Shown: positions 2,436-55,980, counted from the stretch's first letter. The stretch is DNA of 64,000 nucleotides from Halichondria panicea (GCF_963675165.1 NC_087378.1:206562-270561), one strand, 5' to 3'. Notes: a model not told the origin generated them from the letters alone. Made by a program: numbers and translations.

Positions 2436-2516
2436 CTAGGCTAGTGCTAGTCTCATGAATCAGCCGCACCATTGGTGTCAAAGGTGCGGCTGATTCATGA
2501 GACTAGGCTAGTGCAT
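2436..2516. repeat. Perfect hairpin / short foldback element (about 30-bp arms CTAGTCTCATGAATCAGCCGCACC ... GGTGCGGCTGATTCATGAGACTAG, 13-nt loop)
   Basis: The inverted repeat is directly visible. Confidence 0.55.
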
Positions 2517-2932
2517 GCTGTGGAGTTGAGTATCAATGCAATGCTAATGGTGGTTCCTCAAGGATGGCAGCCACGTAAAAAGCTCCCTGGATCATCAGAT
2601 AGACTTTACACTGTAATGAAAATCTATAGCTATAATATAATAGTCTATATATAATTATAGATCTATAATTTATATATATATAGTAGCAATGTTGCTTTCA
2701 AACTGTATATTTATGCCCAGTGCAGTGTCAAAGATTGTGGCGGAAGATGTTACCAGTATATATCGTGCATTAAAGTCACTAGAAGCACCGAATCAAGGAA
2801 CACAGTTATACATCTTGTAACTATTACAACGAACACCCTGCCGGCAAAGAAAGACAAATTGTTGATCAATCGTGAACTGATCACATGCAGTCAGATCACA
2901 TGTTTTTATATAGCCCCCCTTCAACTGTGGTC

Positions 2933-3017
2933 ATGATGATAGTTGTATTACTTTACTCTCTCTTTCTTCTCCTATTATTGGCTGGAGATGTGGAGCTAAA
3001 CCCTGGACCTAGACTGG
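2933..3017 (+). CDS. Putative first coding exon: hydrophobic leader plus 2A-like ribosome-skipping motif (MMIVVLLYSLFLLLLLAGDVELNPGPRL)
   Basis: ATG at 2933. The canonical 2A consensus LLxxAGDVExNPGP is present. A strong donor GTACGT lies at 3018, giving phase 1. Confidence 0.55.
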
Positions 3018-3119
3018 GTACGTTTCAATTTTCTGTTGAATAAAATATTATGGTCATATTATTGGTACGTTCACTTAATTTAAGTGAACCGATTACTATA
3101 TATAGTGAGTACTTTATAG

Positions 3120-4012
3120 TGAGTACTTTTCGGGGGGGGGGTAAATGTAAATATTCGTGGTTGAGAAATTTTTAACCACAAACGAAGCAATATACTTGCA
3201 GTACAAGTATACAGCTGTTTGCATAGACCTTGCAAAAATAATCAGCTCACTGCATTACCACAAAACCACAAAATCATCATACAATGTTGCTATGCAAACA
3301 ACATGCAGTCCTGAGCAATGATGGGTTCTAGAAGTTGTATATCGGGTACTTTTTGAGTAGACCCTTGAAAAGTACCTGCTATAAGGTGGTATCAAGAGTA
3401 ATGCTTTTATCTACTCTTGGTGGTATGGAAACTCATGTAATTATGGTGAGGTTTGAAGAAGTTTCAGGCTGAAGAAAGTGTTAGTACGAAGTACCTTAAA
3501 CACTAACAGATCACAAAATATTGTTTGGTGCTTATCTAGTAGAAAAATATGTTTGGACTTGATAGTCAAAACCGGTATACCGCAGTGAGCAAGTTAGTAG
3601 GTTCTTTAGCGGAACAATTTTTCTACAGCACAAGTCTCAGCGTAAGGCGTTGGTAAACCATTCTCTACTCAAATCCTCCCGGTTCTATGAGTCTCCATAG
3701 TCTATTCTAGAAGACATGCACCATTGGTCACTTTTTATTTAGTGTGAATGTACCCAATACTGCATAGCAACATTGTATGGTGGTTTTGTGGTAAGCAGTG
3801 GTATTTTGCAAGGTCTATGCAAACAGCTGTAGCAACCAGGAAAATAAGATCCATGAACTTGATTAAATATTGTGTTTTGGTGCTAGCATACTGGACATCT
3901 GTATAACAATAATAAATATGTGGAAGTACAGGTCAGGCTGGGTGTTTTAGTGAGAATTATGCTTATTCAATCACGAATATTTTGCCCCCAGGAAATTACC
4001 CGCTATACGGTA
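3120..4012. mobile_element. Composite MITE: outer element with TIR family TACCGTATAGCGGGTAATTTTCGTGG, carrying a nested foldback (about 100-bp inverted arms at 3195-3300 and 3755-3840)
   Basis: The right end CACGAATATTTTGCCCCCAGGAAATTACCCGCTATACGGTAT matches the ends of copies at 7195-7237 and 13345-13378. The internal arms are reverse complements (GCAGCTGTTTGCATAGACCTTGCAAAA...ATGTTGCTATGCA). Confidence 0.55.
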
Positions 4013-4034
4013 TGTTATTATCATTGTGATGCAG

Positions 4035-4304
4035 ATACTATTCTGACTCTTTCTGATCTCCTTGAGGTGTATGAGAAGGCGCGGAGTGCTGGTCCAAACT
4101 GGTTCAACTTGGGACTGGTGTTGAGGCTGAGTTACGGAAAGTTAACAAACTTCCGTGATACGTATCGTGACAATGATGTGTGCCTGCGTGAAGTCCTAGC
4201 ACATCGGCTACAGTCCGGTGGTACTCTAACTTGGGGAGACATGTGTACTGCTCTCAGGCACTCAACAGTGGAGAGAAATGATGCAGCTGAAGCGATAGAG
4301 GAAA
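4035..4304 (+). CDS. Death domain exon (DTILTLSDLLEVYEKARSAGPNWFNLGLVLRLSYGKLTNFRDTYRDNDVCLREVLAHRLQSGGTLTWGDMCTALRHSTVERNDAAEAIEE)
   Basis: Acceptor ttatcattgtgatgcag|AT in phase 1, compatible with the 2A exon, and donor GTAAGT at 4305. The W..LG..LG..LS, DW and LW spacing is typical of a death-domain six-helix fold. An alternative in-frame acceptor exists at 3950/3951. Confidence 0.55.
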
Positions 4305-4540
4305 GTAAGTGGCTGCATTTTATTCACTATTATGTATATATGCTATAGAGTATTTGATTTGAGCATGCATAACTTTATAATTCATGCTTCCCATAATGAT
4401 TACTGGATATTTACATACGCATGCACATAATTATAGGTTGTGAGAGAGAAGAATTTGAGGTAAGAAATTAAAATTAATATTGTTTTTCCGGGATACCTGA
4501 TAACATATCTGCATGTGTGACTATTATTATTGGTACAATA

Positions 4541-4700
4541 CCGTATAGCCGGTAATTCGGGGGACAAAATACTCTTGGTTTTCGTGGTTGAAGTTCTGAC
4601 CACGAATATTTTACCTACGATAAAGCGACCTTGACTATCTTTACCTGCAGTGCAATCAGCAACCACGAAAATATTATCCACGAAATGTTCATTATCATGC
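4541..4700. mobile_element. MITE copy (same family, 5' TIR CCGTATAGCCGGTAATTCGGGGGACAAAATACTCTTGGTTTTCGTGG), 3' truncated
   Basis: Shares the internal GACCACGAATATTTTACC...CTTTACCTGCAGTGCAA...CAACCACGAAAATATTA segment with the 7052-7237 copy. Confidence 0.55.
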
Positions 4701-6529
4701 CGTATAATCATGCGCTCATGCTTTGGTTTAAGAACATTATTGAAATGTTCATACGAATGCATTTTTCATAATGCTATCAGTGAAGTATCACAGGCTACAA
4801 TTAAGACTTGTATATATGAAAGCACCGCAGGTGCTGACGCCTCGGTGAATGTGTCAAAGTACAATCATGAACTAGGGAGTATGGTAATAGAACAGGCAAA
4901 TATTCAATGAACTCTAACACTGTAAAAGTATCAGGACTGTGACCTTACTCTGTGTGTGTGTGTGGGGGGGGGGGGGTACCTCTCTTGAGTCCCCTATAGT
5001 GTTGATGTCTAGCAGTATCTCTCTACAGCCACTCAGACAGTGGTATAAAGTTACTAGTTGTTGCCAATACACATAGCACATGCCACTGATGATGCATTAA
5101 TTTTGTTGTATGCTAATTTGTGTTTGCAGGAAAACGATTGATGCTAAAAATGATGCTAAAAGTACAAAGTCTAAAATAATGGCTGCATCAGTACACGTAC
5201 AGTAGCCTTGTGCAGCTCTCTTCTCACTCTTGTAGCTACCAATAGTTAGTGCAGAGCTAACTACTATAAGTAGAGTAGCAACACTTCATGGATAAGTGTT
5301 GCTACGAACTCTTCTGAAAAGGCTGCAATTAATGGTATTCCAAGTACTAAGCAAACTAGGCATAACTCGAGAACCATGTAAGCATTATTTTGCAAATCCA
5401 CGAATATAAAACATGACTAGAAGCCTATAGAAACTCTTACTTGGACATCATTGATCCTTAACGCATGAGCAGCTGTAGCAGTCTACACAGACACACACAC
5501 AAACACACTACCGTATACCTCACTTGCGCATGCATAATAAACCTTGGTACGAGACCGAGAGTATTTGCATGGTGGGCGTACTTTCGAGTAAAACCTCACC
5601 GTTTGAAATATATAATGTCCAGTCTTGTCTGTAATGGCTAAAGTTCTTGCACAAAAGGGTGGGCGTATTTTTGCGAGGCTACAGTAAATAATGTCATTAT
5701 CATTATCACCTCAGATCACATTGGCATATGCTTTCGTATGAAAATGTCTAGAGAGAAGCTTCAATTCTATGAGCATTCTAAAGCTGATCAAACTTAACTA
5801 TAAGGGTATATATTCTAGATCATGGTGCTGTTAGGGATAGTGGATAAAATGTATGCGTGCAGTCACTGTTTGTCCTTATACATGCACACAGATATCACGA
5901 AGCACAAATGCAAGTGAGACATCAAGCGGTAAGATGTTATACTATACTATATAAGCGTTAACATTAAGCCATGTAGATAATAATAAACGTATATATACCA
6001 GTCTACTATGTATGTAGCCTTAGCCTTGCGTCAAATCAATCGTAGGTAATATCAATATTATCCTGGTATATTGACCACATCCTGGGCGATATTTATAATT
6101 TATTACCAGGAGCATATGAGGAGGAGGATCAAGATGGGGCGGCTTACTACGTATTGCTAGGATATTTTGCTGGTGAAAAACCTTTGCGAATGAGCCAAAT
6201 CAGCAGAAAATTTGACCCTTTGCGATCTAACTATTGCGTTATGGCAAGGATCGTGTGTATTTACTAGTAATAATTTAGGTTTTACAGATTTTATTGTTGC
6301 AAATTGATCAACCATCGCAAATGTTTGATGCTCACTAGTAATATAGTATGTATGCAAACCGCCATATCATTTTATGATATTCACTATTATTAGATAAACG
6401 CATTATATATCATCCGCACATGTACAGAGCACTTAGCACATTACAAACAAGGAAATGTGGTTATACGATAGTGAATCCGCAATACTATGCATAGTATCAT
6501 TTGCTCTTGATATTACCCAGGCATGTACA

Positions 6530-6990
6530 ACAGTATTACCGTACTCTACCAAGATTACGCTCACCCTAATTGCATGCTACAAAACAGCTAGGTGGGATGG
6601 GCTTAATTTCGAAAACAGTGAGTTTTGCCTCGAAATTAAGCCCACTCATTAAGAAAAATACAAGTAATACATTGGTAAAGTAGCTAAGTATAAAGAGTCA
6701 AGATTCTGCATCAGAAGGTTGTTCCTTGTCACTGCCAGAGTCTTTAACAGAGATTCAGAGAAGATTGTCCTTGTCTCTTTATACTTGCAAATAGGATCTA
6801 GCTATATCTAGCTATATTCAGAGCTAACCAGCGTACACAATAAACTTTTTCTTGACAACTTGCTCACTGACAAATGCATCACTTCCTGGTGGGTGTATTC
6901 TCAAGGCAAATATGCAGGAGCTTTCGCTCAAAAGTTAGGGTGGGCGTAATTTCGGATGTGGGTGTAATCTCGGTAGAGTACGGTACGGTA
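6530..6990. repeat. Foldback-type repeat: inverted arms at about 6530-6575 and about 6945-6990, plus a local hairpin at 6590-6650 (GGGCTTAATTTCGAAAAC / CGAAATTAAGCCC)
   Basis: GTATTACCGTACTCTACCAAGATTACGCTCACCC is near the reverse complement of GGTGGGCGTAATTTCGG...GTGTAATCTCGGTAGAGTACGGTAC. Confidence 0.4.
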
Positions 6991-7051
6991 CAATCCTTTG
7001 ATGTTTGACCACAATGAATAATGAGCAAGCTTACCACTGCATGCATGCATA

Positions 7052-7237
7052 TAGAGGGTAATTTCATGGGGCAAAATATTCGTGGTTTTTGTGGTTGAAG
7101 GTCTGACCACGAATATTTTACCCACGAATGAAGTGACCTTGCTTACTTTTACCTGCAGTGCAAGCTCCAACCACGAAAATATTACCCACGAAATACTTCC
7201 CGAAAATTACCCGCTATAATTATACGGTATTAACTTT
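7052..7237. mobile_element. MITE copy with right TIR CGAAAATTACCCGCTATAATTATACGGTATT
   Basis: Same family as 4541-4700 and 13183-13378. Lies in the large intron upstream of exon 7334. Confidence 0.55.
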
Positions 7238-7333
7238 GCGGGTATACATAAATATCATTGTGCTATAGTATTATACATGCATTATACCACACAGTATTAT
7301 ATTATTGATACTTACACTTAAATTTTCATGCAG

Positions 7334-7896
7334 GTGCAAGCAGCCAACTTCAAGTCTCAAATATGCCTCCAGTAACAGACAATTTAGAACTAGATTCGAC
7401 ACAGATGGAAATCAAGTTCAACACTCTTGTGTGTCAGCTATGGGATTCACTTGAAACTCGTAGAATTGCAAAGGAATCTGTAGTTGCTTGCTTGATGGGG
7501 TTTAACTGTTTAAAGAAGGTGTTTTGTGGAAGAAATCAATGTGTTTTTAGAACTCAAAGAAGAAATCTAGATCAATGCTCAACTATCGCAGAAATTTTGC
7601 GAATTATTGCTGACTATTTCTCCTTCTTTGGCTATGATATTATTGAGCAGATTACAAACAAATTAGGAACGGACGAGGATAAAGACCATATGAAACTCTA
7701 CAAAACCAGTTTTATAAGGTATGCTAAGAGGCGAGTAGTGAAAGGGAATATTAGTTCAGGCTCCGGAGAAAATGTGATCGTAAAGCTTGATTCTACTTAC
7801 GACAATTGTGAAGTGAGTCGACTGAAGCTATTCGAGTGGAATTTATGCTCAATCTTGAACTTAAATGAGGGTGTTTTAAAGCTTTGTAAAAATTGA
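7334..7896 (+). CDS. C-terminal coding exon (about 187 aa, unknown domain; ...NMPPVTDNLELDSTQMEIKFNTLVCQLWDSLETRRIAKESVVACLMGFNCLKK...LKLCKN*)
   Basis: Acceptor tttcatgcag|GT. An open frame runs from the acceptor to a TGA at 7894. A phase-1 start makes it compatible with the phase-1 end of the death-domain exon at 4304. Confidence 0.4.
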
Positions 7897-9392
7897 AGAT
7901 GGCTGTGTCGAGCTTACATTTGTATTGCCGATTTTCATAACAAAGGATATCTTCCCACTAAAACCGGATCAAGAAAATGCACTACAGCGTCAAGGGGTCA
8001 TCGAGCTACGCTGTGGGAATACTTATAAAGCTGAGGTGATTTATACCTTAAATTGTTCTCAATTAGGGACGTAATATCTCGTATAATTATTGTCTGCAAC
8101 CTCCGATTCTATAGTAATATCTGATTCAATTATAAGGGGGATTTGTGAGCGTACATGCAAAGTGTAAGCTATAAATAATAGCTAAACCTGGTTTAATTAT
8201 GCCAGTGCATGGTGCCTATAAGTTATTATAACTGCATGCATGGACTATAGTATAGTGCAGTTGTGACAAAAATTAAGCAGCTAGTACAAGCCGTATATTG
8301 CATTGTGTTTCTAACTATCATGCGAAATTGTATGCCCATGCACGTACATGCATGCATGCTCACTCTTTGCGTGTCTTTTGTGTGTAATCTATACAAAAAC
8401 TCAAATAGCCTCGTATTTGAAACCCAGCATAATAATTATTTTGTAACAGTTTAGAATCTGCTGTAAACTAATAATTATACATGATAGCTTGATTCTGTAA
8501 TGCATCATTGCTCTGACACTTGTCTGCATGTTTCAAGCTTATACCATACACTGCATGCATGGGTACTAAATGTATAGTAACTCTCAATATATAAATGCTG
8601 TAGGGCTTAAAGGGTGAAGCTGGCAATGCGTCGCTTTCAGGTGAGTCTTTATATAGTATTGTTGACAGGATACTTTCGTGAACCTAATAGAGGTGGGATG
8701 AATTTGCCTCAATATTATAGACTGATTTGTTTTTTCATTGTGCTGATAACTGTAATATATCCGCCCTGGAAGCACCAAGAAACGCTCAGAAATGTATTAA
8801 GCTTGGTTAGAAGCATAAAGCATGCTCCAAATCTTTAATTGAAGCTGGAAGTTAACGCCTTCAAGTAGAAAGAAGAATGGCTGAGAAACGTAGTTGCTTA
8901 AAAAAGAGGAAAAATAGCCAGAGGAACATCATGCACGCTAGGCTAGAAATGCAGAAATTTTTTGATTGGATAGCAAAAGTTCTTGCAGAAACATTATAGA
9001 CTGAGCTACCAATACATCAGGATCACAGCAGACTCGACTATAGTAATTATAGCATCAGCGCTTAAGTAAATTAGCACTACATGTATAAATTATACTACTA
9101 GCAAAAATTGTCCGCTTTTAAATGAACACTCTGAACTCGTACACATGACAACTAGCTTTTATGTCATTATACCTGGAGTCAAGTGCCGTTTGACTCACAT
9201 TGAAGGCTGTTGCAGTCTCTTCATAGCATCATCCGTTCCTTCCAAAAAGTACTTCTTTTAGTACTTTTAGGCTAGTACTGCACTGCTGTACAGAAATTAA
9301 CCCTACAGTACAGATAATGCAGAACTCTAGGTGACAGTCCACTGCTGCATGCTGTACATTATTTAATATTAAAATAATCGACCCTTTTGCAG

Positions 9393-9692
9393 ATAAGGAC
9401 GTACCTGTGCAAAATTCCCCTCCACGCTCCAAGCCGAGGGTCTCCCGGCCTAGAACAGCACCCTCACAGCCTCTGCCCCCCTCACAAGTAGCACTACCCT
9501 CACAAGCCCCACCTCCACCCAGGCTAGGGGTGCTCGTGGAAGCAACCCAACCGATTACTACCAATGACAATGCTGGCATGCTTAGATGGCTTCTTGGAGG
9601 GAGGGTAGGTGGCGAGGACAGAGTGAGAGAGATCATTGTGTCTCAGGACAGGAGCAGGGCTATTGTGGAGTTTGTTAACCCAGACCCAGGAG
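9393..9692 (+). CDS. RRM-like repeat protein, exon 1 of visible part (Pro-rich, then RRM-like MLRWLLGGRVGGEDRVREIIVSQDRSRAIVEFVNPDPG)
   Basis: Acceptor cccttttgcag|AT and donor GTATGT at 9693. The motif resembles the N-terminal RRMs of PARP10, PARP14 and DTX3L. Confidence 0.55.
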
Positions 9693-9810
9693 GTATGTTG
9701 CTTTTAGAATATTGCACTGTATTATCGGCGGGGGAGGAGGGGGGTGTATATTGAAAGCTAGCTATGAATTTATATTTGCCATTGTTCATAACATAATTCA
9801 TCTCCTACAG

Positions 9811-10050
9811 TCATACAGCAGCTGGTATCCACCAGTGCTGACCTCCTTGACCCCCTCTCCAAGCAACCACTCCGTCTAACTCAGATCGACCTGACTACCC
9901 TCTGCCTCGTAGTTACAGGCTTTCCACCATTTGTCTATGAGTCAGCTCTAGAGAGCCACTTCCGAAGAGAAGCTGATGGCCAACAGATACATTCTGTACA
10001 GATGTCAGCTGACAAAGAGTCTGCAATGATCACCTTCATGTGTCCTACAT
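9811..10050 (+). CDS. RRM-like repeat protein exon (second RRM-like: LCLVVTGFPPFVYESALESHFRREADGQQIHSVQMSADKESAMITF)
   Basis: Acceptor tctcctacag|TC, donor GTGAGG at 10051, phase 1 to 1. Confidence 0.5.
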
Positions 10051-10099
10051 GTGAGGGCTGTTCTTATGCTATAATTTATTTCACTGAGCATCTATGCAG

Positions 10100-10384
10100 T
10101 TGCCATGGAATTGGCTGGAAAGAAAACACAGCTGTTTGGTTTTAATCTCCATCTTGAGCTTGGCTGCAATAGTACTACAAACAGTTCTCCAGCTTATCCT
10201 ACCTCGACAGCTGTACACAGCTCTATTGCTCTGTGTGTGCAAGGACTCCCTGAGACCATGCTGAACAACCTACATATTTTGTCAGAGGCTTTAAAATATT
10301 TTATCAAACAGGGCACAGGTTTTGAGGCAGCTGACTGTAGCATTGTGCAAGGACTGGGTTATCTGACATTCACCGATCCATCAG
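10100..10384 (+). CDS. RRM-like repeat protein exon
   Basis: Acceptor tctatgcag|T, donor GTAAGT at 10385. FAMELAGKKTQLFGFNLHLELG...GLPETMLNNLHILSEALKYFIKQGTGFEAADCSIVQGLGYLTFTDPS. Confidence 0.5.
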
Positions 10385-10451
10385 GTAAGTGGGTGACTAC
10401 AATATCAAAACCCATTAATTTTGCATCTCTGCATGTACGTGTACGTTACAG

Positions 10452-11021
10452 CTGTACAAGCCATTGTGAACAACCCACCCACCCAAAACTTCATGTTTGA
10501 CAGTATCCTGCACATGTCTGCAACTTCACAACCTCTTGCTCCGTCTCAAGTCCCCCCTACTGCTCCGAGGGAGGCTTGGGGGGTACATGACACACCCATT
10601 GACAGGCAACTCCCAGGAAATACATCTCCTCACTTGGAGAGACCACCTGTGAGACCCACGAACAGACCACCAGTACCACACCGAAGGCGTTTTGCAAGTG
10701 AGGGAATTGATGGCCCATCACCAAGCAATAGAAGACAGCACATCCACCCTAGGAATCAACCTCAATGGCATTATCAAGGAGACCAATATCCTCATCACCA
10801 GGGACCACAACAACACCAGTCTTACTATGGGCCCATGCATCATAGTGCATCCTATCCTGATAGTATGGGGACCACTACTCCAACATCGTACGGTCAGCAG
10901 CTGCCCTATCCCCCCTACGGATATCCCCCCTATTCTGGCCAGCCTCAGTGGGGGGGACAGGACGCAACCATCGCTGTGCAGTCTGGGGCACCTCAGGTGC
11001 GTGTACAAGGCAGCCAACACG
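10452..11021 (+). CDS. RRM-like repeat protein exon: long Pro/Gln/Tyr/His-rich low-complexity region (...PYPPYGYPPYSGQPQWGGQD...)
   Basis: Acceptor gttacag|CT, donor GTATGT at 11022. It is a 190-codon open frame of strongly biased composition. Confidence 0.5.
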
Positions 11022-11195
11022 GTATGTTTGATGTTTATCATTAAAATTAATGATTATTGTAGTGTTGGGGGGAATTCCCTGGTAAAGTCCCTAGGCTACC
11101 AACATTCCTGCGTACCAATTTTGGTATTGTGGTAATACCCATTACATGACTTGCTTCATTATGCCTCGGTGCGCATGCGCAAGCAAGGTATACGG

Positions 11196-13445: not shown

Positions 13446-13676
13446 ATATGAACAGGGTTCTCGAGTTGTCTAGGACGAACCCATTGGAGGGTGTGGTCCT
13501 TGCCCTGTCTGCCCTCGAGCCATCAGATACAGTCCTCGTCTCTGGCCTCAATGACACCACTCAAGATGTCCTCGTCAAGTTGATGCTGGCTGATTATATC
13601 AAGCAACACGACTCTGTTGAATCTGTGAAGCGGATCTCTCCCACCCACGCATTGGTCATCTTCAAGTCCCCTAACA
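13446..13676 (+). CDS. PARP14-like copy 2, first coding exon (ATG at about 13448; RRM-like MNRVLELSRTNPLEGVVLALSALEPSDTVLVSGLNDTTQDVLVKLMLADYIKQHDSVESVKRISPTHALVIFKSPN)
   Basis: An acceptor (cttgcag|AT) lies immediately upstream, so a 5' UTR exon is likely. Donor GTGAGT at 13677. Confidence 0.7.
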
Positions 13677-13730
13677 GTGAGTCACACTGAAAGCTTAAAC
13701 TGTTTAGCAATTAAAAACAATCCATTACAG

Positions 13731-14779
13731 GTGTTCAGAAAATGATAAGCATGACAAGCACTCCACTAATTGAAGTTGAAGGATTGCAACTTTATGTGAA
13801 GGAGCACTATCCGTTTATGGACATTAGTGAAATACTTGACCCATCCTCAACAAAACAAGATGATCCTCTGAAGCCTAACGATCCCCCCACCCCCACCAGT
13901 ACCCAGGTGGTGGTACACAGTTCACAGAGGGACCCACTCACGGAAGAGAAACACTTTTATCTGAAGAACAGCCTCCCTGAGTTCAACGATGCTCTGCAAT
14001 CACTGAAAGCGTGTGCTGATATTGAGAAAGTTGGGAAGGAATATTTTGTGGTGATTTCACCTCTTAAAGGCTCTGGCAGTATTGATGAATGGAAGGACAA
14101 AGTTGCTGCAGCTCTACAAAAACACTTCGAAGAATTATCGATTGAGACGATTAATTTTCCAAATAAGGAGGCAATGGCAGATGTCTTAGTTTTAATTTAC
14201 GATCAAAGAGATTCGGTTCTAGTCGCTGAGAAGAATCCCAACTCCTTTGTTATAGCTGGTCACAAAGAAAATATTATCAACGTTTATGAGAAAGCAACAG
14301 AAATTTGTAAACAATATCAAGTTACTATTCGTGTGATAGAGCTCCCTCGGAAACGTGTGAAATTCTTGGAAAAGTTCTACCACCACGAGTTCCAGAAACT
14401 AGTTAATAAAACAAGTGTTCATGCCATTCAGTTCAACACAGACAATGGATTGATTACTGTAACAGCCAATCCCCCCGGCCACACCGAAGTTGACGAAGTG
14501 GTTGAGCAAAAGAACACACCAGAAGAGAAATCGTTACAGATGTCTCAGATGGCCTATAAACTACTTTCCTCTCAAAAAGGTGCGGAAAAGTTAAATAGTA
14601 TCTCTGGTCGACAAATTGTGTACCATATGGAACAAGTTCAAATCCCAGGTGATGTGCAGTATTATATTCGCTTTCTCTCTAAGGATGTGGAGGTTCTAAA
14701 GAAGGTTAAGGAAAGTGTGAAGTTGTATGTCCATGAGGTGGCGTTTGAAACGAGGCCTGCTAAGATACGAGTGTCATAG
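13731..14779 (+). CDS. PARP14-like copy 2 large exon (KH-like/linker region), ends at an in-frame TAG at 14777 because of an apparent frameshift
   Basis: Acceptor ccattacag|GT in phase 1. A 349-codon open frame. Confidence 0.7.
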
Positions 14780-16011
14780 CCACACTCAGTGAAAAGCATT
14801 TTGTGTCCGTTACTGCTCAAGAAGCTTCAAGCTCGATTATCGTTACCGGTGAAAAACTTGCCTGTAATGACATCAGTAAAAAGGTACAGAGCTTTCTAGA
14901 GAAGCACACTAACATTGAGGAGTGTGTGACAGTCAGTCAGAGCGAATGGTTTGTTGTAAAGGGAAATTTTTGCAACGAGGTTAAAGAAATAAACGATCAA
15001 TTGAAGAAGAAGCAAGTCAAAATCGAGTGGCCTAAACCTAATCTTAATGTGTCTTCCCTTCCGATTGTTATCTCTGGAGAGCCTGGGGTGGTGGACGACA
15101 TTAAGGAACAAATATCACTTCTCTTAAAGAAGGTGTGCAAGAAGGAGTCACGCATCACTGGTGTGCCAGCTGCCGTGCATGTGCTCGAGAGTATGGAAGA
15201 CAAACGGGGTCTCCTAGAATCAGATGAGAAAGTTCAGATCGAAGTAACTCTTGAAAATGATGATACTAACGAGGAGCTAGAGGCAGCTGCTCAAGTGGAA
15301 GGTGAACTCCCCCGGCAAGTGTGCGCTGGGACTTCCCCCAGTGGATCACGGGTGTCCGTTTACACTGGAGACTTTGCCCAAAATGCTCCCGTAGGAGTTA
15401 TTGTGAATTTCATCACGTCTGATCCAAACACACAAGTTGGATGCCTCAAACATCTCCTTGAATCTGGAGGAGCTGATGCAATGGAAGATTTTAAACGAAA
15501 AGTATTGCAATGCATGAAGCTTAAACCTGGTAAGGTGTTCAGGACACGTCATGGGCAGCTTAAGTGCTCACAGCTGGTTCACTGCGTCTTGCCATCTTGG
15601 AGAACTGCTACAGAGACTGAAGCTAACAAAGAGTACTTCCTCGAAGAAGCTTTGTACGATGTTATGAAAGACACTGCACACACTGGGTCTATTCTGATCA
15701 TCCCTCTGACCTCTGCCCCCCTCCACTATCCTGTCAACACGTTTGTACGACTCGTCATGGATGCTGCTACTCACCAAACTAGTTCAAATCTGCAAGTCTC
15801 CGTCTATGTCGAGGAATTTCATCATGCCAACGAGTTTCAGGGTGCTTTTCAGACAAGGAAGTACCAAATTCATCAGAAGGTACCACTGGGTTCACCATTG
15901 CTGGCTGCTAAGAAGGAAAGACCTTCCCCTCTGGCTGCTAGTGTCAAGACAATCGCCAGTAACCTTGGTAACTTCATCACTATAGTCAACGGAGACCTGC
16001 TACAACAACAG
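14764..16011 (+). CDS. PARP14-like copy 2: continuation in the +1 frame; contains macro domain 1 (APVGVIVNFITSDPNTQVGCLKHLLESGGADAMEDFKRK...GKVFRTRHGQLKCSQLVHCVLPSW)
   Basis: The frame is open from 14764 with no internal ATG for 120 codons, so it must be read through from the upstream frame. Donor cag|GTACAC at 16012. Confidence 0.65.
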
Positions 16012-16209
16012 GTACACTGACTGAGAGGGCTTGTACTGTGAAATTACTGTTAGATTCATTTGTACCATGATATTATTATATAATGATATAATATTGTGTT
16101 AGTGAGTATATATAGCGCCAAGAGAACTATGTTGTTAGCATTACAATTATTTGAGGTATGTACCAATTTCACTAACTCTAACGTTAATATTTAATTACTG
16201 TTCCACTAG

Positions 16210-16431
16210 GCTGATGTGTACATCAACTCCACCAATACCACACTCAACCTGAAGCAAGGACAGTTGTCCCAGATCCTACTAAAGACCTGTGGTGATGAAT
16301 TACAGACAGAGTGCTCAGAGTATGCTCCACTGAAGCCGGGGCAGGTGGCAGTCACAGGCGCCAAAAACTTGAAGTGCAATCAACTCTTTCACATTGCTCT
16401 GCCTGATTACAAAACAGCCAATTCTGAGAGG
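16210..16431 (+). CDS. PARP14-like copy 2: macro domain 2, first exon
   Basis: Acceptor ttccactag|GCT, donor GTGAGT. Paralogous to 171-392. Confidence 0.8.
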
Positions 16432-16526
16432 GTGAGTTGTAGCCTCCGGAATAAAGCCCCTCATACATCTATATATGCTAGGTATAGGGGCGATTCTAAT
16501 GGTACACTGTTTTTCATTGTGTACAG

Positions 16527-16790
16527 GTTTTTCGAGAAACGGTTCGACAGATTCTTCGCATAGCCAAGAGCAGCAGTGTGTCCTCCATTGCTATCCCATC
16601 ACTCGGTGTGGCTAATCTTGGCTACCCTGAGAACGTGTCAGCTAAAATCCTGTTCCAAGAAGTCATCGCTTTCCATTCCCAGTACCCAAGTTCCATTCAG
16701 AAGTTCATCTTTGTAATCTATGAGAAGAATGTGTTCCAAGCGTTCAGCAAAGAGTTCGCCCAGCAAATGAGTGGGGAATCGACTGTACAG
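16527..16790 (+). CDS. PARP14-like copy 2: macro domain 2, second exon
   Basis: Acceptor gtgtacag|GTT, donor GTATGT at 16791. Paralogous to 524-787. Confidence 0.8.
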
Positions 16791-16950
16791 GTATGTTAAC
16801 ATACATGTACAATTGTAAGCAACCATTTGATCGATGGCCCTGAACACTGGTAATTAACTGTGCAGAGATGTACATGCATGCAAATTGTTTAGAGTAAACC
16901 ACAAGTCTTGTTAATGGTTCTCGTGTCAACTGCACATGACTTTTACACAG

Positions 16951-18214
16951 GCATCTCCAATGGCTTCTCTCCCAGTAACCCCGCCCATTGGGAGCACCAC
17001 CCTCATAATAGCTCAGGGAAATATTGCCGAGGAGTCGACTGACATCATCGTTAACACTACCTCTGAGGATATGACACTCAACAAATCCGCCGTTTCCAAG
17101 GCAATTCTTGAGAAGGCTGGTGATGAGCTACAGAAGATATGCAAACAGTATGTTGAAAATGGAATGCGATTGGATCACGGGCAAATTGTTGTTACATCAG
17201 CTGTTGGGAAGCTCCGCTGTAGAAAGATAATCCATGCCCACGTACCTCACCAAGGGTCAATAGCAATGTCATCCACTCACCACTGCCAGCTCATTGAGAA
17301 GATTGTTATTGACTGTCTACAAAAAGCCGAACACGAGAAAACAAAATCGATATCTTTCCCAGCCTTTGGTTTGGGAGGGGGTGGTTATTCGGTTGAGCAA
17401 GTAGCCGAGCCGATGCTCAAAGCCTTTCAGAAGTTTGGGCAGACACATCCACAATCTGTGAAATTGATAAGAGTAGTTCTTTACGATCCAGAACTGTACA
17501 AGCAGTTCAATGATTTCTACTACAAATTCTTTGGTCGCAGTCCATTAGATCCCAGTCCACCACCCCCTATAGCTAGTTGGTGGAACCCCTTTGCCAGTGG
17601 TAGTCATAAGGTCAACAGCGAGGGTCAAGAGATTCAGGCAGGAGGTGTGGCTTCACTTAAGGCTCCACTCCTTCCACAATCCATACCAAACTCCACAGTT
17701 ATCTTCACAATTTTTGCTGCCTCCGATGCCCACTGTGATAAAATTGAGAAAGATTTTACAAAGTTAATCAAAGAAAACTACACAACGAAAAAAATTGTGA
17801 GTACCCACATTGAACAGCTGATTGATGACGATTTTAAAAATATATTTCAAATCGGGAAACAGCATGGCGTTCAAGTGAAAATGGTGGTCAAAATAAATGA
17901 GATTCACATTTCTGGGGAGATATCTAAAGTTAAGGAAGCTCACAGTGAGATTCAACAGATTTTGAGGGATTTCTCCATGATTGAGCTTTGTGATTTTGAG
18001 TGGTTGAGTGTAGACGATGATGGGAGGTATAACGCCTACCCCCCAGCGGCTAACATGAAACTAGAGCGTGCCTTTAACAAGGATCTGAATGCTATTGAAC
18101 TGATTGTGAACAATGTTGTCGTGGTAATTGATATCCAAAACAAAATGGAAACGGACAAGACAACTGGAAAGAGAAGGAATATTATGCGTGCTAAGAATGT
18201 TATGGCATCAGTTG
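16951..18214 (+). CDS. PARP14-like copy 2: macro domain 3 plus WWE domain exon
   Basis: Macro: IIAQGNIAEESTDIIVNTTSEDMTLNKSAVSKAILEKAGDELQKICKQY...GQIVVTSAVGKLRCRKIIHAHVP. WWE: IELCDFEWLSVDDDGRYNAYPPAANMKLERAFNKDLNAIELIVNNVVVVIDIQNKMETDKTTGKRRNIMR. Donor GTGAGT at 18215. This exon is absent from copy 1. Confidence 0.8.
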
Positions 18215-18369
18215 GTGAGTGAGTCTATGCATGTGTGTTTGTTCCAGTAAATTTCTGTTATTCTCTCATGTTACTCCCCTCCTCTGGTAGCTACTAGCTA
18301 ATATTATAATAATTATTTTGTGCTCCCTAAATAAATTATAAAATGTCCTACGCTTGTTTAATTATACAG

Positions 18370-18705
18370 ACTTCCCCCCCACATGGGAGACCCCCCACAG
18401 CACGGGTGGTAAGAGAGAGCCAATGACCAGGATTGAAGTGGACTCAGGGACACCAGAGTATATAGAGGCAGTCAAAGAGTTTGAAGAGTCACTGAGAAAA
18501 GGAGGTGTCAAATACTCCATCGAGAAGGTTGAGAGGATTGAGAATATAACTGAGTATGCCAAACACGTTGCCTTGAACGACTCCATCAGAGTGAAACACA
18601 AGAAAGACCCTCTAGTGAAGAGGCTGTTTCATGGGTCCAAGAAAGATAGCATTGTACGAATTGCAGTACAGGGATTCAACAGAAACTTTGCTGCCGATGC
18701 AAATG
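18370..18705 (+). CDS. PARP14-like copy 2: PARP catalytic exon 1 (LFHGS)
   Basis: Acceptor aattatacag|AC in phase 1, donor aatg|GTAATT. Confidence 0.8.
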
Positions 18706-18793
18706 GTAATTAGATTATTAAAGTGTTGAAGTGAAAAATTTTACATACTCTAAATGCATACTTAATTTTTCTCTCGATCTATATATTTTCCAG

Positions 18794-19086
18794 CTGCTTA
18801 CTACGGGACGGGAGTGTACTTTGCAGTGGAGTCTTCCTACTCTGCCCAGAACAAGTATTCAGTACCTGACTCGAGTGGCCTCCGGTACATGTTTGTGTGT
18901 CATGTGATCATCGGAGAGTATACCCTAGGCAACAAAGACATGAAGATAGCCCCTCCACTGACACCTGGCTCCAATGCAGTTTTTGATACTTTAGTCAATC
19001 ATATGAAGCCTCCAACTATTTTTGTAGCCTTGACTGATGCCCAGGCTTATCCCGAGTACCTTATCACATTCAAAAAACTTAAATAA
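18794..19086 (+). CDS. PARP14-like copy 2: terminal PARP catalytic exon; TAA at 19084 overlaps the AATAAA signal
   Basis: AAYYGTGVYFAVESSYSAQNKYSVPDSSGLRYMFVCHVIIGEYTLGNK...YPEYLITFKKLK*. Confidence 0.8.
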
Positions 19087-22200: not shown

Positions 22201-23067
22201 TGCAAGTTAGTCTCTATCTCATATCCGCCATTCACAGTATACAAACATGTCATTGCATACCTCTTCAGTTCTTTGTATTCGCTGTTCCAAATCTTGTTGC
22301 TGCTCGTCCAACTGGTTACCCGAAGAGTCCACCCTATGAACAAAATTAATATTCCAATAATTGTCACCATGGTATATAAATGGCTAGGGAACCACTTACC
22401 ATATAAAGGAGTTTCTTCCCAGCTTCTGACCTGGTACACAGCCCATGTGCTTCACCTCAATCTTCAAGTTGTCATGTGATTTGAGGACCAAGACGGCCGA
22501 GCTGTGAGAGAGCCGATCGAAGCTGATCCCGTTCACACACACGATTTGGTCCCCGGTTTCCAACCCACTTTGTTCTGCTACTGAGAATGCATCTACGTGT
22601 GATACAAATATCCCGAGATTGTGCTCCCTGCCTCCCCTGATACTGAACCCCAGTGATGAGCCAGGACTACGCTGAAGAGTGATAATCCTTGAAGATGGAG
22701 ACTCTTGCGTCTGCAAACCTCCATTGCCACTCGCAACTCTGCCGTTGACTGGTTTGCCCAGCAAGTCATTTGATTTTCGGTCCACTTTGTGAGGATGTGC
22801 CATTCGATTATACGGAGCAAGATTGTCAAATCGTTTTTTGTCGTGCTTAGGAATAAGGTCTCTGACATATGGCAGAAGGTCCAACTTGTCTGGTGTATCG
22901 AGGCAAGAATTGAGAGCTAGCATCAGTTTGGCCACGCTCTTGTAAGTGTTGTACTCCTTCATAGCATAGAACAGGTAGTCCTTGTCTTCAGGTGTGAGCA
23001 GCTGGTCGACTGTTCTCTGGAATTCCCGTATGTGGACAGCCTTCTCAACATCTTTACGGGCAGACAT
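19274..23067 (-). CDS. WHRN: Whirlin-like scaffold gene (HHD1-PDZ1-PDZ2-HHD2-Pro/Ser-rich-PDZ3), multi-exon, gene span
   Basis: ATG at 23067 on the minus strand. First exon 22400-23067 encodes the HHD1 domain (YNTYKSVAKLMLALNSCLDTPDKLDLLPYVRDLIP) followed by PDZ1 (RIITLQRSPGSSLGFSIRGGREHNLGIFVSHVDAFSVAEQSGLETGDQIVCVNG). PDZ2 exons lie at about 21817-22200 (RSLGFSVRGGAEYSLGIYVS | RVDKGSPSEESGLKVGDQIMDINGHSF). The Pro/Ser-rich region is at about 21339-21640, and HHD2-like exons at about 20690-21282 (DITEFVDELIPLLNTPDKLRLLNDVR). The PDZ3 exons are 19795-19967, 19601-19698 (MAIKGGSDTPYKNVYVRELREGGAVHKDGFVQ) and 19274-19417 (PGYEVVQVDEQRIRGRTYTEAMEAI...*). The domain order matches whirlin/PDZD7. 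Confidence 0.7.
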
Positions 23068-30183: not shown

Positions 30184-31418
30184 GTAAGCAATGACTGGGT
30201 CATGTGGAATGCTTTAGTCTGCATAGTTGATTGTGTGTGTGCAATTCTCCCTAAATTGCAATGAGCTAAGCTAGCCATGAAAGGTTTTGTATTAAGCTTG
30301 TGTGAATGGAGACAATTACTACGTTAGGTGTTCCTTGAATCAACACTTTGAGTGCTGAGTGCATTTGGGATGCTGTGTTCATGTTTCACTTGCCCTTTCC
30401 ATTCCTGTAACCCGTGTGTACTGTAGTGACCGTTTTATGGTCAGCTTTGCAGTGCACACTCCTTTTGTGGCAAGACCATCTAGAACTTTGCGTTTAGTTG
30501 ATTAGACCACTTGTTCCTTGTTAGGAGTCCATTTCTCTGCAGCTCTTCTTGTAGCCACAACAGAGCGTGCATTCTTGTGGCTTTATAGCAACTGCTCCTA
30601 TAATAGGATTTATGTGCACATCAAAGGATTTGAGTAAAAATGGTCATCCCTTGATTAGATTTACAGTTCCACTGTGGCACTTCAAAGGACTTGTGGTTTG
30701 CATTGCATATAAGTACTGAGTATATAATCAGGGACTCCAAGAGGCATATATACCATTGCTTTGATGTGGTTGTTTACCTACTTGTAGCTGGCAGGATATG
30801 ATAATAACTTCTTTATTAGTGGGTAATGTCTTAACTAGCTGCCAAGCTTGTACTGAAACATAGGGTTTGATCAGTTAGTATTATTTTCAGCAGCACTTTA
30901 GTGTTTATGGGTGTGTATATTGAGCAATTAAAATGTAGTGCCTAGAGAATTCTTGTCTTGTATGTTTTTTGCACGTGACATATGCCATACCATTGTAGGG
31001 TGTTGGTACTCAGCAATGGGCCATTAAGCACTTACCACATACCCCCCTGCTTGAGTGGCTTGGGAAAGCTGTACACCAGAGTGGTGTTGGGTGTTATAGC
31101 ATCATATAGCTCCGGCCCACTCAACTATAGCCTCTGTGTGTGTGTGTGTGTGTATGTGTGCAGTGTTTGTGTGTATGGAGTGTTTGTTATTGGCCACTGC
31201 ATATATTCTATAGGTAAAGGTAAAGAGTACATTCTTTATTATGTATGTGTGCATTCTGAATGATGTGTGGGCTACTGTATTGGTAGCTATGAAAGGACAG
31301 ACAAGATAAACAATTTTCTGCTTTGAAGTTGAACCTTATCACTTCACTGTTACACCACAAATGTAGCGTAACAAGCTGAATACATTATCATATGTTATGT
31401 TACCCCCCCCCCTTCCAG

Positions 31419-33409
31419 GTGGCCCCGCTGACAGAGCTGGTCTCAAAAAGAATGAAGTGGTCGTCGCAGTCAACAACAATGACATTACAAACTTTTCCCA
31501 TCAAGATGTCGTCGGTCTGATAGCCAACAACCCTAGTCCCGGTATCTGGCTGACCGTCTGTGAGCCTGTTGAAGCACCTCGAATGAATGTCCGCCATTAC
31601 GACACTCCCCCTCAAGCTCCATCATTTGGCCGAGTGTCTAGTCTGGGCACGCTCTCCATGAGTCAGAGCACACCCATGATCAATAGAGGTAACTTCTCCG
31701 AGCCTCGAAGGATCTATGCGAACGATGACTCCCCCCCTCCGAGGTATTCTGAAACCCCCATGAACCAGCCGCGTGTCATGAACAAATCTCCACACTCAGT
31801 GACAGCATCTTCCATCAATGTGTCCCCGCTAACGCACGTGTACAAGTCAAATGGTTTGAGCAGCAGCGACCAAAGCTTCCCCCAGCGCATCTCCTCCCCC
31901 ACACCTTCCCCCAGTGCTTTCACAAGTGCCAATGTCCTCGTGCTATACATAGGAGCGGTCGAGATTCCCCTGACCTGGAGAGTACGAGAACTAAGCTCAA
32001 GATGCTTGCAAGAGTGCACACGACAATTGCTGAGTCAGCGACAAGAGTTCCTCGAAGTTTTCCTCGAAGTGAATTTGAAATCGCTTAAAGTTTTGAAAGT
32101 CGATCAAATGCCGTTGTTTGTTCATCCCAGAGAGGAACTGTTCTATTGTGGAGTTTGCACAAACGATGAGCAATACTTTGGTGTGGTCACCAAGAAGGAA
32201 CAGAAAGGGAGCAGAAAGGGCAACCAGAGCAATGGCCAACAACCCAGGGCTCACATGTGCCATGTCTTCAAAGTCATGCAGTCAAAGAGCGTGCTCGTCC
32301 TTAAAACAGGAGACCAAAAATCCAATCAAAAAAGCAAAACAATTCCAATGACTACAGTCAAGCCCAAGACCATTCCAATCGTGTCTTGTGTAACCATCAT
32401 CAATGCTCTACAAGGCCTCTTCACCTCCAACGATCTAGGCGGTAGCAAGTTATTCTCTGAGTCATCTTCTCTTCGTGGCAGTACTTCTGATCAGAGCCTC
32501 AAAGTTGGCCCAAGTCTCTCTTCTTTCAGTTCTGGAGGCAGCAGCAGTGAGAGCATATCAAGCCATGACAAGTTGAAAACGAAATTAGATGTTGTTGATT
32601 TGCGGCCAGCGGCTTTCTCCCCGAAATCACGCTCACTCCTCACCCAGTCTCTGCCAACGTCTAACCCAAACATGTACGTCGCCCCCCCTCAACATTCACG
32701 CACATTCAGTAAAGAAGAGTTCCTCCCAGCCCCTGTGACTAACTCCCCCTTGATTAACCAAAGACGAAATAGTTCGCAACACACTCGCTCTTTCAGTAAA
32801 GAGGACTTCCCCCTAGCCTCTGTGGCTACCCCGGCCTTTATTAACCAACGACGAAACAGTAGTGCTGGAAGCTGGTACACTGCTGACTCACCTAAAGAGA
32901 ATCACCATTCAAGAGAAAACAGTTGGGAGTCAAAAGACAGACCCACCTCAGGAAACTATGAAAAGTACACAGTCCATGTGCCCCAAACACAGTACACAAC
33001 GAGTGGGTCCTCTGGAGGGAGGACCAGTGGTGGCTCTGGAAAGCAGAATTTCGGAACTCAGGGCTTTGATCATCTCTCAAGAAAAGTTTCTGATGATAGC
33101 AGTATATCATTAAGTCTCTCTGACCCTCGGGACAGCCCCACAAAACTCGGATTCAAGTCTCGAAGTCGGTCTGGATCTCCCAGTCCCCCTCAAAGCCTCA
33201 GCTACTCGTCAGGCAGTGGTTCCCCTACTCCATTGAGAAGACAACGCTCCCCAAGCCCTGGCCCTGTACCTCATGCTCCTCGCTATCATACCCCGGCTGT
33301 TTCCAAGCTGTCGTCAGGCCTAGCATTGGAGAGCTCACGATCAAGGCTCTACCGACCTGTCAGTCCAGTGGGATCTTATCGAGGCTCCAGGATGCCTCTT
33401 AAGAGACAG
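31419..33409 (+). CDS. RGS12: RGS12-like exon 2 (about 2 kb): second PDZ half, PTB/PID-like domain, long Ser/Pro-rich disordered region
   Basis: Acceptor ccttccag|GT in phase 1. GPADRAGLKKNEVVVAVNNNDITNFSHQDVVGLIAN completes the PDZ domain. The PTB-like segment reads ...LYIGAVEIPLTWRVRELSSRCLQECTRQLL...HMCHVFKV... Donor cag|GTGAGT at 33410. Confidence 0.75.
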
Positions 33410-43267: not shown

Positions 43268-46600
<3,333 letters not shown>

Positions 46601-55455: not shown

Positions 55456-55980
55456 ACTGTATGTGTATGTATGTGTGTGTGAGGTGTGACTATGTATGTG
55501 TGTGTGAGGTGTGACTATGTGTGTGTGTGTGCGGACGTCTGTGTGCGTGTGTGTGTGAGGTGTGTGTACGTCTGTGTATGTGTAAGCAACTGACCCAATA
55601 CCACTAAACAACCACACCTCTAGCTACTATGGTACACTGTCTATAAAGGAAGTAGTCTCCCTATTAAACACACAGTACATGAAGCCCTTATCTTTCACCT
55701 TTATACAAGAGTTAAGTTGTAGATGTATGATCAGCTAGGGTCCAACTTGTTTACAGAGCAGTCGCCTCCTTGTGCAATGCAGCAATCAGCCTAGTCTTCT
55801 ACGGAGACGCTATTGCATAGTTTGGAAATCCCCGAGGGTGCTCAGAATGAGTCAGCAAATTCACATAAAGAGAATGACACAGCACTTTTTAGCGTTTTAG
55901 CGGAGGTCAGAGGTCATATTTAGTGGGCGTGCATTTGGTGGGCGTGCCAGAAGAAAGCAAAATCCACGTGGAACTGAAAG

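Follow-up and report, generated by a model that had tools for sequence, protein, structure and literature searches.

Does the 64,000-nucleotide stretch of Halichondria panicea DNA analysed here (GCF_963675165.1, NC_087378.1:206562-270561; hereafter the window, with positions counted from its first letter) contain a sponge gene whose protein starts with a ribosome-skipping 2A leader and, if so, what kind of gene is it and where did the leader come from? An earlier annotation made from the nucleotide sequence (the sequence-only reading) had proposed, at positions 2933-7896, a gene of three exons encoding a hydrophobic leader that ends in a 2A motif, a death domain, and, at the C-terminal end, a further domain of possibly novel type. 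The best joint explanation of the results described below is that window 2493-8793 is a partial paralogue, consisting of the first four exons only, of an H. panicea 'sacsin-like' death-fold gene, with the leader origin and the mechanism set out in the following sections; a probability of about 0.68 was assigned to it.

A predicted 2A leader ahead of a divergent death domain

Translation of positions 2933-3016 on the + strand gave MMIVVLLYSLFLLLLLAGDVELNPGPRL, followed by one extra base (3017) and the donor GTACGT at 3018. This first exon (2933-3017) consists of two consecutive ATG codons, a 16-residue hydrophobic stretch and the 2A sequence, and ends in phase 1 (G/GTACGT); its counterpart in L004, the locus of the nearest paralogue (ENA ERZ26868619 ctg15393, 1764613-1785416), lies at 7422-7503. 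Exon 2 (4035-4304) is preceded by an AG at 4033-4034 (acceptor CAG) and followed by the donor GTAAGT at 4305 (A/GTAAGT), both of its ends being in phase 1. Read in that phase it encodes about 89 amino acids (aa), D-TILTLSDLLEVYEKARSAGPNWFNLGL...AEAIEE, the longer stretch at its start being D-TILTLSDLLEVYEKARSAGPNWFNLGLVLRLSY. Exon 3 begins in phase 1 at 7334, after the acceptor CAG at 7331-7333, and is open up to a TGA at 7894-7896. When joined, exons 1, 2 and 3 form a single open reading frame (ORF) of 305 codons ending at that TGA, and the GT/AG sites and phases of the chain 3017>4035>4304>7334 are all correct. The translation of 2933-3017 thus bears out the coordinates, the canonical 2A and the donor of exon 1 as first proposed, and the sequence agrees with the acceptor, the donor and the phase match proposed for the next two exons. 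The chain also holds as a unit, since it recurs in paralogues with its phase 1 introns conserved. A leader-2A followed by a death domain was found at six loci from four assemblies (the window, L001, L002, L004, L005 and L007), four of which also carry the next module, as well as in ORF P0339; in addition, ten read-through fusions of leader-2A to death domain were detected at the ORF level. Exon structure and phases are conserved in the window, L001, L002 and L004. From the anatomy, conservation, paralogy and family memberships observed, we infer the splicing of the chain as well as the StopGo activity and the targeting considered below.

A degenerate DNA pattern for D[VIM]ExNPGP (in which the RTN codon also admits Met) had one match in the 64-kb window, at 2987-3009, where 0.00 were expected (100 shuffles), and NPGP occurred only once across the six frames. 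The DVELNPGP encoded at 2987-3010 contains the C-terminal class A motif D(V/I)ExNPGP, and the upstream context of class A 2A sequences, with a Gly before the Asp (G11) and a Leu-rich cluster (L6, L7), is present as well (..SLFLLLLLAGDVELNPGP). The positions reported to be critical in this class are L6, L7, G11, D12, E14, N16 and PGP (preprint 10.64898/2026.09.24.754024); every one of them is found in the window leader, the final 14 residues of which (LLLLAGDVELNPGP) are identical at 12 positions to those of the F2A of FMDV (the virus of foot-and-mouth disease), LLKLAGDVESNPGP. The exon 1 leader is thus predicted to be a canonical class A 2A sequence. The viral class A sequences (FMDV F2A, E2A, P2A and T2A), all of whose essential residues it shares, lie between polyprotein domains, whereas here the 2A stands at the start of an ORF, in a cellular or transposon context. 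Among the six loci, the core AGDVELNPGP (2981-3010 in the window) is identical in five, L004 having I for L at the free x position. AGDVE[LI]NPGP is kept in all six, with Ala, Gly, Val, Glu, Leu, Asn and Pro codons that vary synonymously; selection would appear to act on the 2A peptide rather than on the nucleotide sequence.

Given all the critical class A residues and the 12/14 match to F2A, StopGo would be expected between the GGA at 3005-3007 (Gly) and the CCT at 3008-3010 (Pro). A ribosome on ...AGDVELNPG/P would fail to make the Gly-Pro bond, release the leader and continue with Pro-Arg-Leu-Asp and the death domain, so that the product of skipping would be a cytosolic death-fold protein without the leader. 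Should skipping fail, the hydrophobic leader (mean Kyte-Doolittle value of 2.7 over residues 1-18) would stay attached and would be expected to serve as a signal or anchor sequence. This dual-targeting logic is modelled on the 2A leaders of sea urchin NLRs, for which it has been demonstrated experimentally. A leader acting solely as a signal or anchor peptide, its NPGP being a non-functional transposon relic that induces no skipping, would suit the strong hydrophobicity of residues 1-18, and some 2A-like sequences of non-long-terminal-repeat (non-LTR) retrotransposons are indeed inactive (PMC3708506). However, the inactive examples have substitutions in the core motif, whereas the window leader has every critical position, and the motif ([DGNE][VIL]ExNPGP) is kept in 112 of the 117 family leaders that were read; the absence of skipping is therefore rather improbable.

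The identity of exon 2 was addressed through its relatives. An exhaustive phmmer search with exon 2 returned 369 representative clusters, and 43 of 108 relatives matched PF00531 at E<=0.01 (Pfam). In one of them, P0162, the PF00531 match (49.5 bits) covers the same stretch that aligns to window exon 2. The top 13 matches of the exon 2 family profile in PDB were FADD and PIDD death domains (E 2.5e-4 to 0.018); RIPK1 death domains appeared further down the list at a non-significant E of ~0.9. Other relatives precede NACHT-LRR (P0183 and P0128) or adjoin TPR-CHAT (P0084). On this family-level homology, exon 2 is accepted here as a divergent death domain. The term 'clean death-domain exon', used in the sequence-only reading, is thus appropriate for the family, in view of the relatives with PF00531 and the FADD and PIDD profile matches, but not for the exon taken by itself, which fails the direct PF00531 test that the sequence-only reading had itself set as a ground for refutation.

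The paralogous sacsin-like gene and the stop in exon 3

A search with the spliced protein returned 18 clusters, 13 of them covering exon 3 and five covering the leader plus the death domain. The best exon 3 match (80% identity) clusters with the RefSeq protein 'sacsin-like isoform X2' (XP_064387032.1), to the N-terminus of which exon 3 is 80% identical. Inspection of L004 showed it to contain, in this order, a 2A exon (MMIVVLLFSLFHLLLAGDVEINPGP), a death-domain exon, exon 3, a 37-nt mini-exon (GLKGEAGNALLS) and ORFs with SACS repeats (PF25794); the link between the exon 3 module, named X, and SACS is also present in XP_064387032.1. At the DNA level, L004 aligns with window positions 2493-3042, with the death-domain exon, and with 7317-8173 and 8484-8793; the homology stops at that point. 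These segments include the window's own mini-exon 4 (8604-8640, between TAG/ and /GTGAGT), which encodes GLKGEAGNASLS plus one base and corresponds to residues 227-238 of isoform X2, and a final stretch (8641-8793) homologous to the parent-type locus. Past the mini-exon, tblastn with residues 227-606 of XP_064387032.1 detected no sacsin exon (SACS/HATPase, PF25794) in the window. The window therefore resembles the sacsin-like genes (XP_064387032.1, XP_064387031.1 and XP_064385917.1) in that its nearest paralogue is the 5' end of one of them, but differs from them in having no SACS/HATPase repeats; it is a truncated, possibly disabled, paralogue. The RefSeq models in turn differ in not including the 2A and death-domain exons. 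In the annotation of L004 10049-18273, isoform X1 is a protein of 788 aa encoded by a single ORF (15907-18270) and isoform X2 one of 606 aa that ends at 15374; the two do not overlap, and further SACS ORFs lie downstream of both. What is annotated as separate isoforms seems to be a single giant gene that has been divided and stripped of its exons for the 2A and the death domain, and it is probable that the first exons are lacking from the RefSeq models of these sponge genes.

The window diverges from L004 in a mosaic fashion: identity is 94% over 2493-3042, ~80% in exon 2 (dS 0.46) and ~86% in exon 3 (dS 0.24). Since the identity of the 5' block exceeds that of exons 2 and 3, gene conversion or recombination among paralogues is suggested.

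The exon 3 module extends from 7334 to 8035, where the donor GAG/GTGATT (8035/8036) is conserved in all four loci examined (the window, L001, L002 and L004). Alignment of exon 3 with that of L004 revealed four indels: three triplets and, within the A5 run at 7888-7892, one additional A. This one-nucleotide insertion creates the TGA at 7894-7896; tblastn with every homologue switched frame at about 7889, and the corrected frame goes on as ..LKLCKIEDGCVELTFVLP...CGNTYKAE up to the donor GAG/GT. The exon proposed at 7334-7896 is therefore phase-compatible and open, as had been stated, but its stop is a +1 frameshift relative to every homologue, and it is not C-terminal, since in relatives it continues to 8035, to the mini-exon and to a sacsin-like body that is absent from the window. 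As assembled, the window copy would yield at most a 305-aa product, in which the leader and the death domain precede an X module cut short at its C-terminal end. The ratio of nonsynonymous to synonymous substitution rates (dN/dS) between the window and L004 was 0.42 overall, and 0.27 past the frameshift when read in the shifted frame. Derived amino-acid changes numbered 7 in the window versus 11 in L004 for X, and 7 versus 10 for the death domain. An old pseudogene under relaxed constraint is not supported by this symmetric relative-rate count, and the symmetry of the substitution rates argues for selection on the copy until recently. Given these signs against an old pseudogene, the extra A is a recent event, an allelic variant or a mistake of the assembly.

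Were the frameshift due to an error of assembly or consensus, or to a minor allele, the gene would read through 8035 and 8640 and splice to further exons downstream. The location of the indel in a homopolymer, the symmetric rates and the low dN/dS past the frameshift, the intact donors at 8035 and 8640, and the presence of same-strand ORFs with no Pfam match ahead of the annotated start of a PARP14-like gene (13448) would all fit this scenario, in which the 3' partner in a new 2A-death-domain-X fusion may be found in the unassigned ORFs that occupy 9.4-11.1 kb on the + strand, or else in the PARP14-like gene. It was nevertheless judged unlikely, given that the contig (ENA ERZ26868619 ctg14895) has, according to its name, ~91x coverage, that the assembly encodes the exact truncated ORF of 177 aa, and that neither homology nor annotation ties exon 4 to anything downstream. 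Somewhat less likely still is the intact gene of three exons envisaged at the outset, with a product of 305 aa that starts with the 2A leader, continues with a death domain and closes with a novel domain ending at 7896. The open, phase-compatible ORF chain and the purifying selection (dN/dS 0.42, with no surplus of derived changes relative to the paralogue) agree with it; against it, the stop is created by one inserted base that all of the 13 or more homologues lack, the last ~49 residues are lost from a domain that is otherwise conserved up to the donor at 8035, conservation persists beyond the frameshift when the shifted frame is read, and a conserved mini-exon follows.

A +1 slip of tRNA-Lys on the A5 run (7885-7896, with AAA re-pairing with AAA) would restore ..LKLCK/IEDGCVELTF. 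Programmed +1 frameshifting at this site was considered and judged unlikely, no stimulatory feature being evident; the insertion is probably a plain indel.

The exon 3 family comprises at least 120 clusters, unannotated and mostly with no source name. No match was found in Pfam or, by sequence, in PDB, and Foldseek returned nothing significant, so that the earlier description of this domain as 'not recognisable' was fair. A second death-fold domain, of death-effector-like type, followed by a ferredoxin-like domain is offered for exon 3 as a lead, not a result.

The long leader and its kinship with a retrotransposon

In most of the family the 2A does not stand at the very start of the protein. 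In P0014 to P0018, L001 and L002, it ends an ORF of ~130-150 aa (MGIGVELWRARIGLFNGGRGG...hydrophobic...LLLLAGDVELNPGP) that is followed by a GT..AG intron of 51-54 nt and the death domain; a full leader of ~140 aa lies at L001 10001-10426. The consensus leader is M-x-I-D-x-E-x-WRARIGLFN...transmembrane segment...2A, with a length of ~90-180 aa. A search with the leader profile returned 740 clusters at E<=10. The N-terminal motif [WY]R[AV]x[IV]G was present in 103 of 121 sequences, and in 98 it was followed by the 2A, NPGP ending a median of 110 residues further on. Leaders at the loci from other assemblies are only ~30% identical. At one of these, L007, the order is leader-2A, death domain, X module. 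At L005 (9950-15990 of ENA ERZ25070530, another sponge-derived assembly), the leader-2A and the death domain are followed by an ORF of 1011 aa encoding a Peptidase_S8 (subtilase), which suggests that the head formed by leader and death domain may be combined with different effector bodies. A second death-domain ORF, 33% identical to that of the window and with no 2A leader, was observed at L002 13843-15576, directly 5' of an ORF for a Kelch-type beta-propeller and 3 kb 3' of the gene for leader, death domain and X.

If translation starts at the ATG at 2933, only 26 aa precede and include the final Pro of the 2A, in the window as in L004, in contrast to the 90-180-aa leader found before the 2A in L001, L005, L007 and most of the family. 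The 5' flank of the window exon (2493-2932, matching L004 7013-7421 with 94% identity excluding gaps) still resembles the leader ORF of paralogues, but contains a frame change and in-frame stops (..IVDQS*TDH..) that are shared with L004; tblastn alignments to P0018 and P0351 cross a stop in this region. Since the upstream part of the leader is broken by the frame change and the shared stops, the ATG ATG at 2933 is the first usable start. The 26-aa leader of the window is thus, as far as its sequence tells, the tail of a leader of ~90-180 aa. In the lineage of the window and L004, about 100 upstream leader codons would have decayed, leaving the start at 2933. The N-terminal position given to the 2A in the earlier proposal is accordingly not the ancestral one, as in other paralogues it closes the long leader.

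A leader of this type was also found at L006, where MGVNLEMYRARIGLFN...LLCGDVELNPGP runs into the start of an endonuclease of the apurinic/apyrimidinic (APE) type, with Exo_endo_phos_2 and RVT_1 ORFs directly downstream of it. This leader begins M-G-V-N-L-E-M-Y-R-A-R-I-G-L-F-N, continues with a transmembrane stretch, and has CGDVELNPGP about 60 aa from its start. APE-type non-LTR retrotransposons are known to bear 2A-like sequences in the N-terminal region of their ORF2 (Odon et al. 2013, PMC3708506); the list of taxa given there includes no sponges. The type of leader at L006 and the position of its 2A are as described for those elements. The window differs from them in having no APE or reverse transcriptase (RT), and in that its leader would be spliced to host death-fold exons. 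Neither APE nor RT adjoins the leader in the window, L001, L002 or L004; both were found only at L006. The window locus is therefore not a transposon, even though its leader is homologous to that of one. As the homology with the leader of an APE/RT non-LTR element extends over the whole length and not just the 2A, the leader is most likely the domesticated 5' module of a non-LTR retrotransposon. A viral origin of the entire leader was also considered and rejected, since IMG/VR contigs match the 2A core only (profile residues ~116-142). The most improbable of the alternatives is that the 2A exon is only a retrotransposon fragment that happens to stand upstream of a death-domain gene to which it does not belong and in which transcription starts further downstream: the homology to a non-LTR leader, the RefSeq model of a paralogue that has no 2A exon and an exon 1 no more conserved than its flank would favour it, but the orientation, adjacency and phase 1 GT..AG junction recur at six loci of four assemblies with leaders ~30% identical, ten ORFs fuse the leader-2A to the death domain by read-through, at none of these loci is the leader followed by APE or RT, and the 2A peptide is kept through synonymous change.

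A broader proposal can be made tentatively, at odds slightly below even, namely that sponges domesticated the 5' leader of an APE-type non-LTR element as a portable first exon shared by a large death-fold gene family with variable effector bodies (sacsin-like, subtilase and others). The module so recruited would comprise a start codon, an N-terminal motif of the WRARIG type, a membrane segment and a StopGo 2A; this composition is proposed equally tentatively.

Several observations weigh against identifying the window as a partial paralogue of a 2A-led sacsin-like gene. Exon 2 has no direct Pfam match (with the spliced protein searched up to E 10, and with the exon on its own up to E 0.01), and its AlphaFold2 model, with six helices, is unreliable (mean predicted local distance difference test score of 45.6, from an alignment of 6 sequences). 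The RefSeq isoform X2 of L004 starts at the first Met of exon 3 and contains neither the 2A nor the death-domain exon, which fits either a 5'-incomplete model or non-use of exons 1 and 2. Exon 1 and its non-coding flank are equally identical (94%) to L004; with exon 1 no better conserved than the flank, constraint on the short leader is not demonstrated in the sub-lineage of the window and L004. The frameshift may be an assembly error, and the symmetric substitution rates argue for selection until recently, so that the description of a 'decaying copy' is uncertain. Finally, the inferred direction of transfer, from transposon to gene, is based on one transposon locus read in detail (L006).

Surroundings of the locus and the sea urchin parallel

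Intron 1 (3018-4034) is 1017 nt long in the window, 282 nt in L004 and 51-54 nt in L001 and L002. Most of its growth relative to L004 is due to an insert at 3210-3831, which resembles a miniature inverted-repeat transposable element and lies between 57-nt inverted repeats (77% complementary). Intron 2 (4305-7333) holds two units of ~130 nt resembling short interspersed nuclear elements, at 4556-4686 and 7063-7194 (85-88% identical); strings such as 'CCACGAATATTTTACC...' near 3960-4010 resemble this unit. In addition, the segment 6150-6333, in intron 2 of the window, is 86% identical to L004 7546-7725, in intron 1 of that locus, and is either a rearrangement or a mobile element that inserted independently.

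The locus had been described as lying between two macro-PARP (PARP14-like) paralogues, and both flanks were confirmed. The upstream PARP14-like gene ends at 2077, with Macro and PARP Pfam matches at 177-491 and 1688-2077, and the exons of the downstream one (RefSeq XP_064383380.1) are 100% identical within 13448-19086. This identity, and the verbatim presence of the window's ORFs on ENA ERZ26868619 ctg14895, mark the DNA as that of H. panicea. The suggestion of an innate-immunity cluster rests on these two flanking genes only, and is not supported beyond them, as the other genes of the window are ordinary: a harmonin-N plus PDZ ORF (22396-23067, - strand), a second PDZ ORF (31397-33442, + strand), a beta-TrCP D-domain ORF (55051-55617, - strand) and a Calx-beta ORF (62638-63264, - strand), none of them immune-related. 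The + strand ORFs at 9229-11135 are Pro/Gln-rich, with RRM-like strings such as VREIIVSQDRSRAIVEFVNPD and no Pfam match. Lying between the death-domain copy and the annotated start (13448) of the PARP14-like gene, they may represent 5' exons, missing from the annotation, of that gene or of another one. A perfect (CA)n microsatellite of about 371 units occupies 43361-44103, and accounts for the spike in GC skew and AT skew at 42-44 kb and for the overlapping ORFs on both strands.

The arrangement of a 2A before a death domain has a precedent. NLRs of the sea urchin Strongylocentrotus purpuratus have N-terminal 2A-like signal sequences ahead of their DEATH domains (SpNLR2A; Roulston et al. 2016, PMC4981915), and for SpNLR2A6 dual targeting by the 2A leader was shown experimentally (PMC4981915). 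The analogy drawn by the sequence-only reading with echinoderm NLR/death-domain receptors was therefore accurate. In both cases a leader of 26 aa, composed of a hydrophobic stretch and GDVExNPGP and, in the window, N-terminal if translation starts at 2933, directly precedes a DEATH-type domain, with a putative innate-immunity protein downstream, and the leaders of SpNLR2A6 and the window are identical at 15 of 26 positions in an ungapped comparison. The two systems differ in phylum (Echinodermata there, Porifera here) and in gene body, which is NACHT-LRR in the sea urchin but a death domain, an X module and sacsin-like repeats here (a subtilase in L005). No NACHT or LRR was found in the window copy, and its paralogue goes on to SACS repeats. 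Among the relatives of exon 2, a NACHT-LRR does follow the death domain of P0183 and P0128, no 2A being shown for either. They differ, too, in that the sponge leader would be the remnant of one of ~90-180 aa whose WRARIG-type motif is shared with a retrotransposon, and in that activity and targeting were tested in the sea urchin, while the leader of the window is known from its sequence. Literature searches for 2A leaders in sponges found no report, and those for the WRARIG motif nothing relevant. A cellular 2A leader before a DEATH domain is thus known from the sea urchin; the novelty lies in the phylum, in the gene body and in an extended leader that a retrotransposon also bears.

Being a partial and possibly disabled paralogue, the window copy is in itself of limited importance, and the interest lies in the family that it exposes. 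The use of 2A in cells has been considered rare, known from non-LTR retrotransposons and, among host genes, from the NLRs of the sea urchin as the one family studied by experiment, and the origin of cellular 2A leaders has been regarded as untraceable (PMC4981915). The genes described here provide a second host family with a 2A leader before a death domain, in the early-branching phylum Porifera, and their leader has sufficient length to reveal that its homology with that of a retrotransposon is not confined to the 2A itself. If their expression is confirmed, they would bear on where cellular 2A leaders come from, on whether death-fold immune genes of invertebrates generally employ StopGo for dual targeting, and on how a host gene may acquire from the 5' end of a transposon a first exon with a peptide that separates from the protein of the host. 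If the domestication is true, then, with the sea urchin NLRs showing the same order of 2A and DEATH, immune genes with death domains would have taken up 2A leaders from transposons either at an ancient stage of metazoan evolution or with striking recurrence, and cellular 2A leaders would gain a traceable origin.

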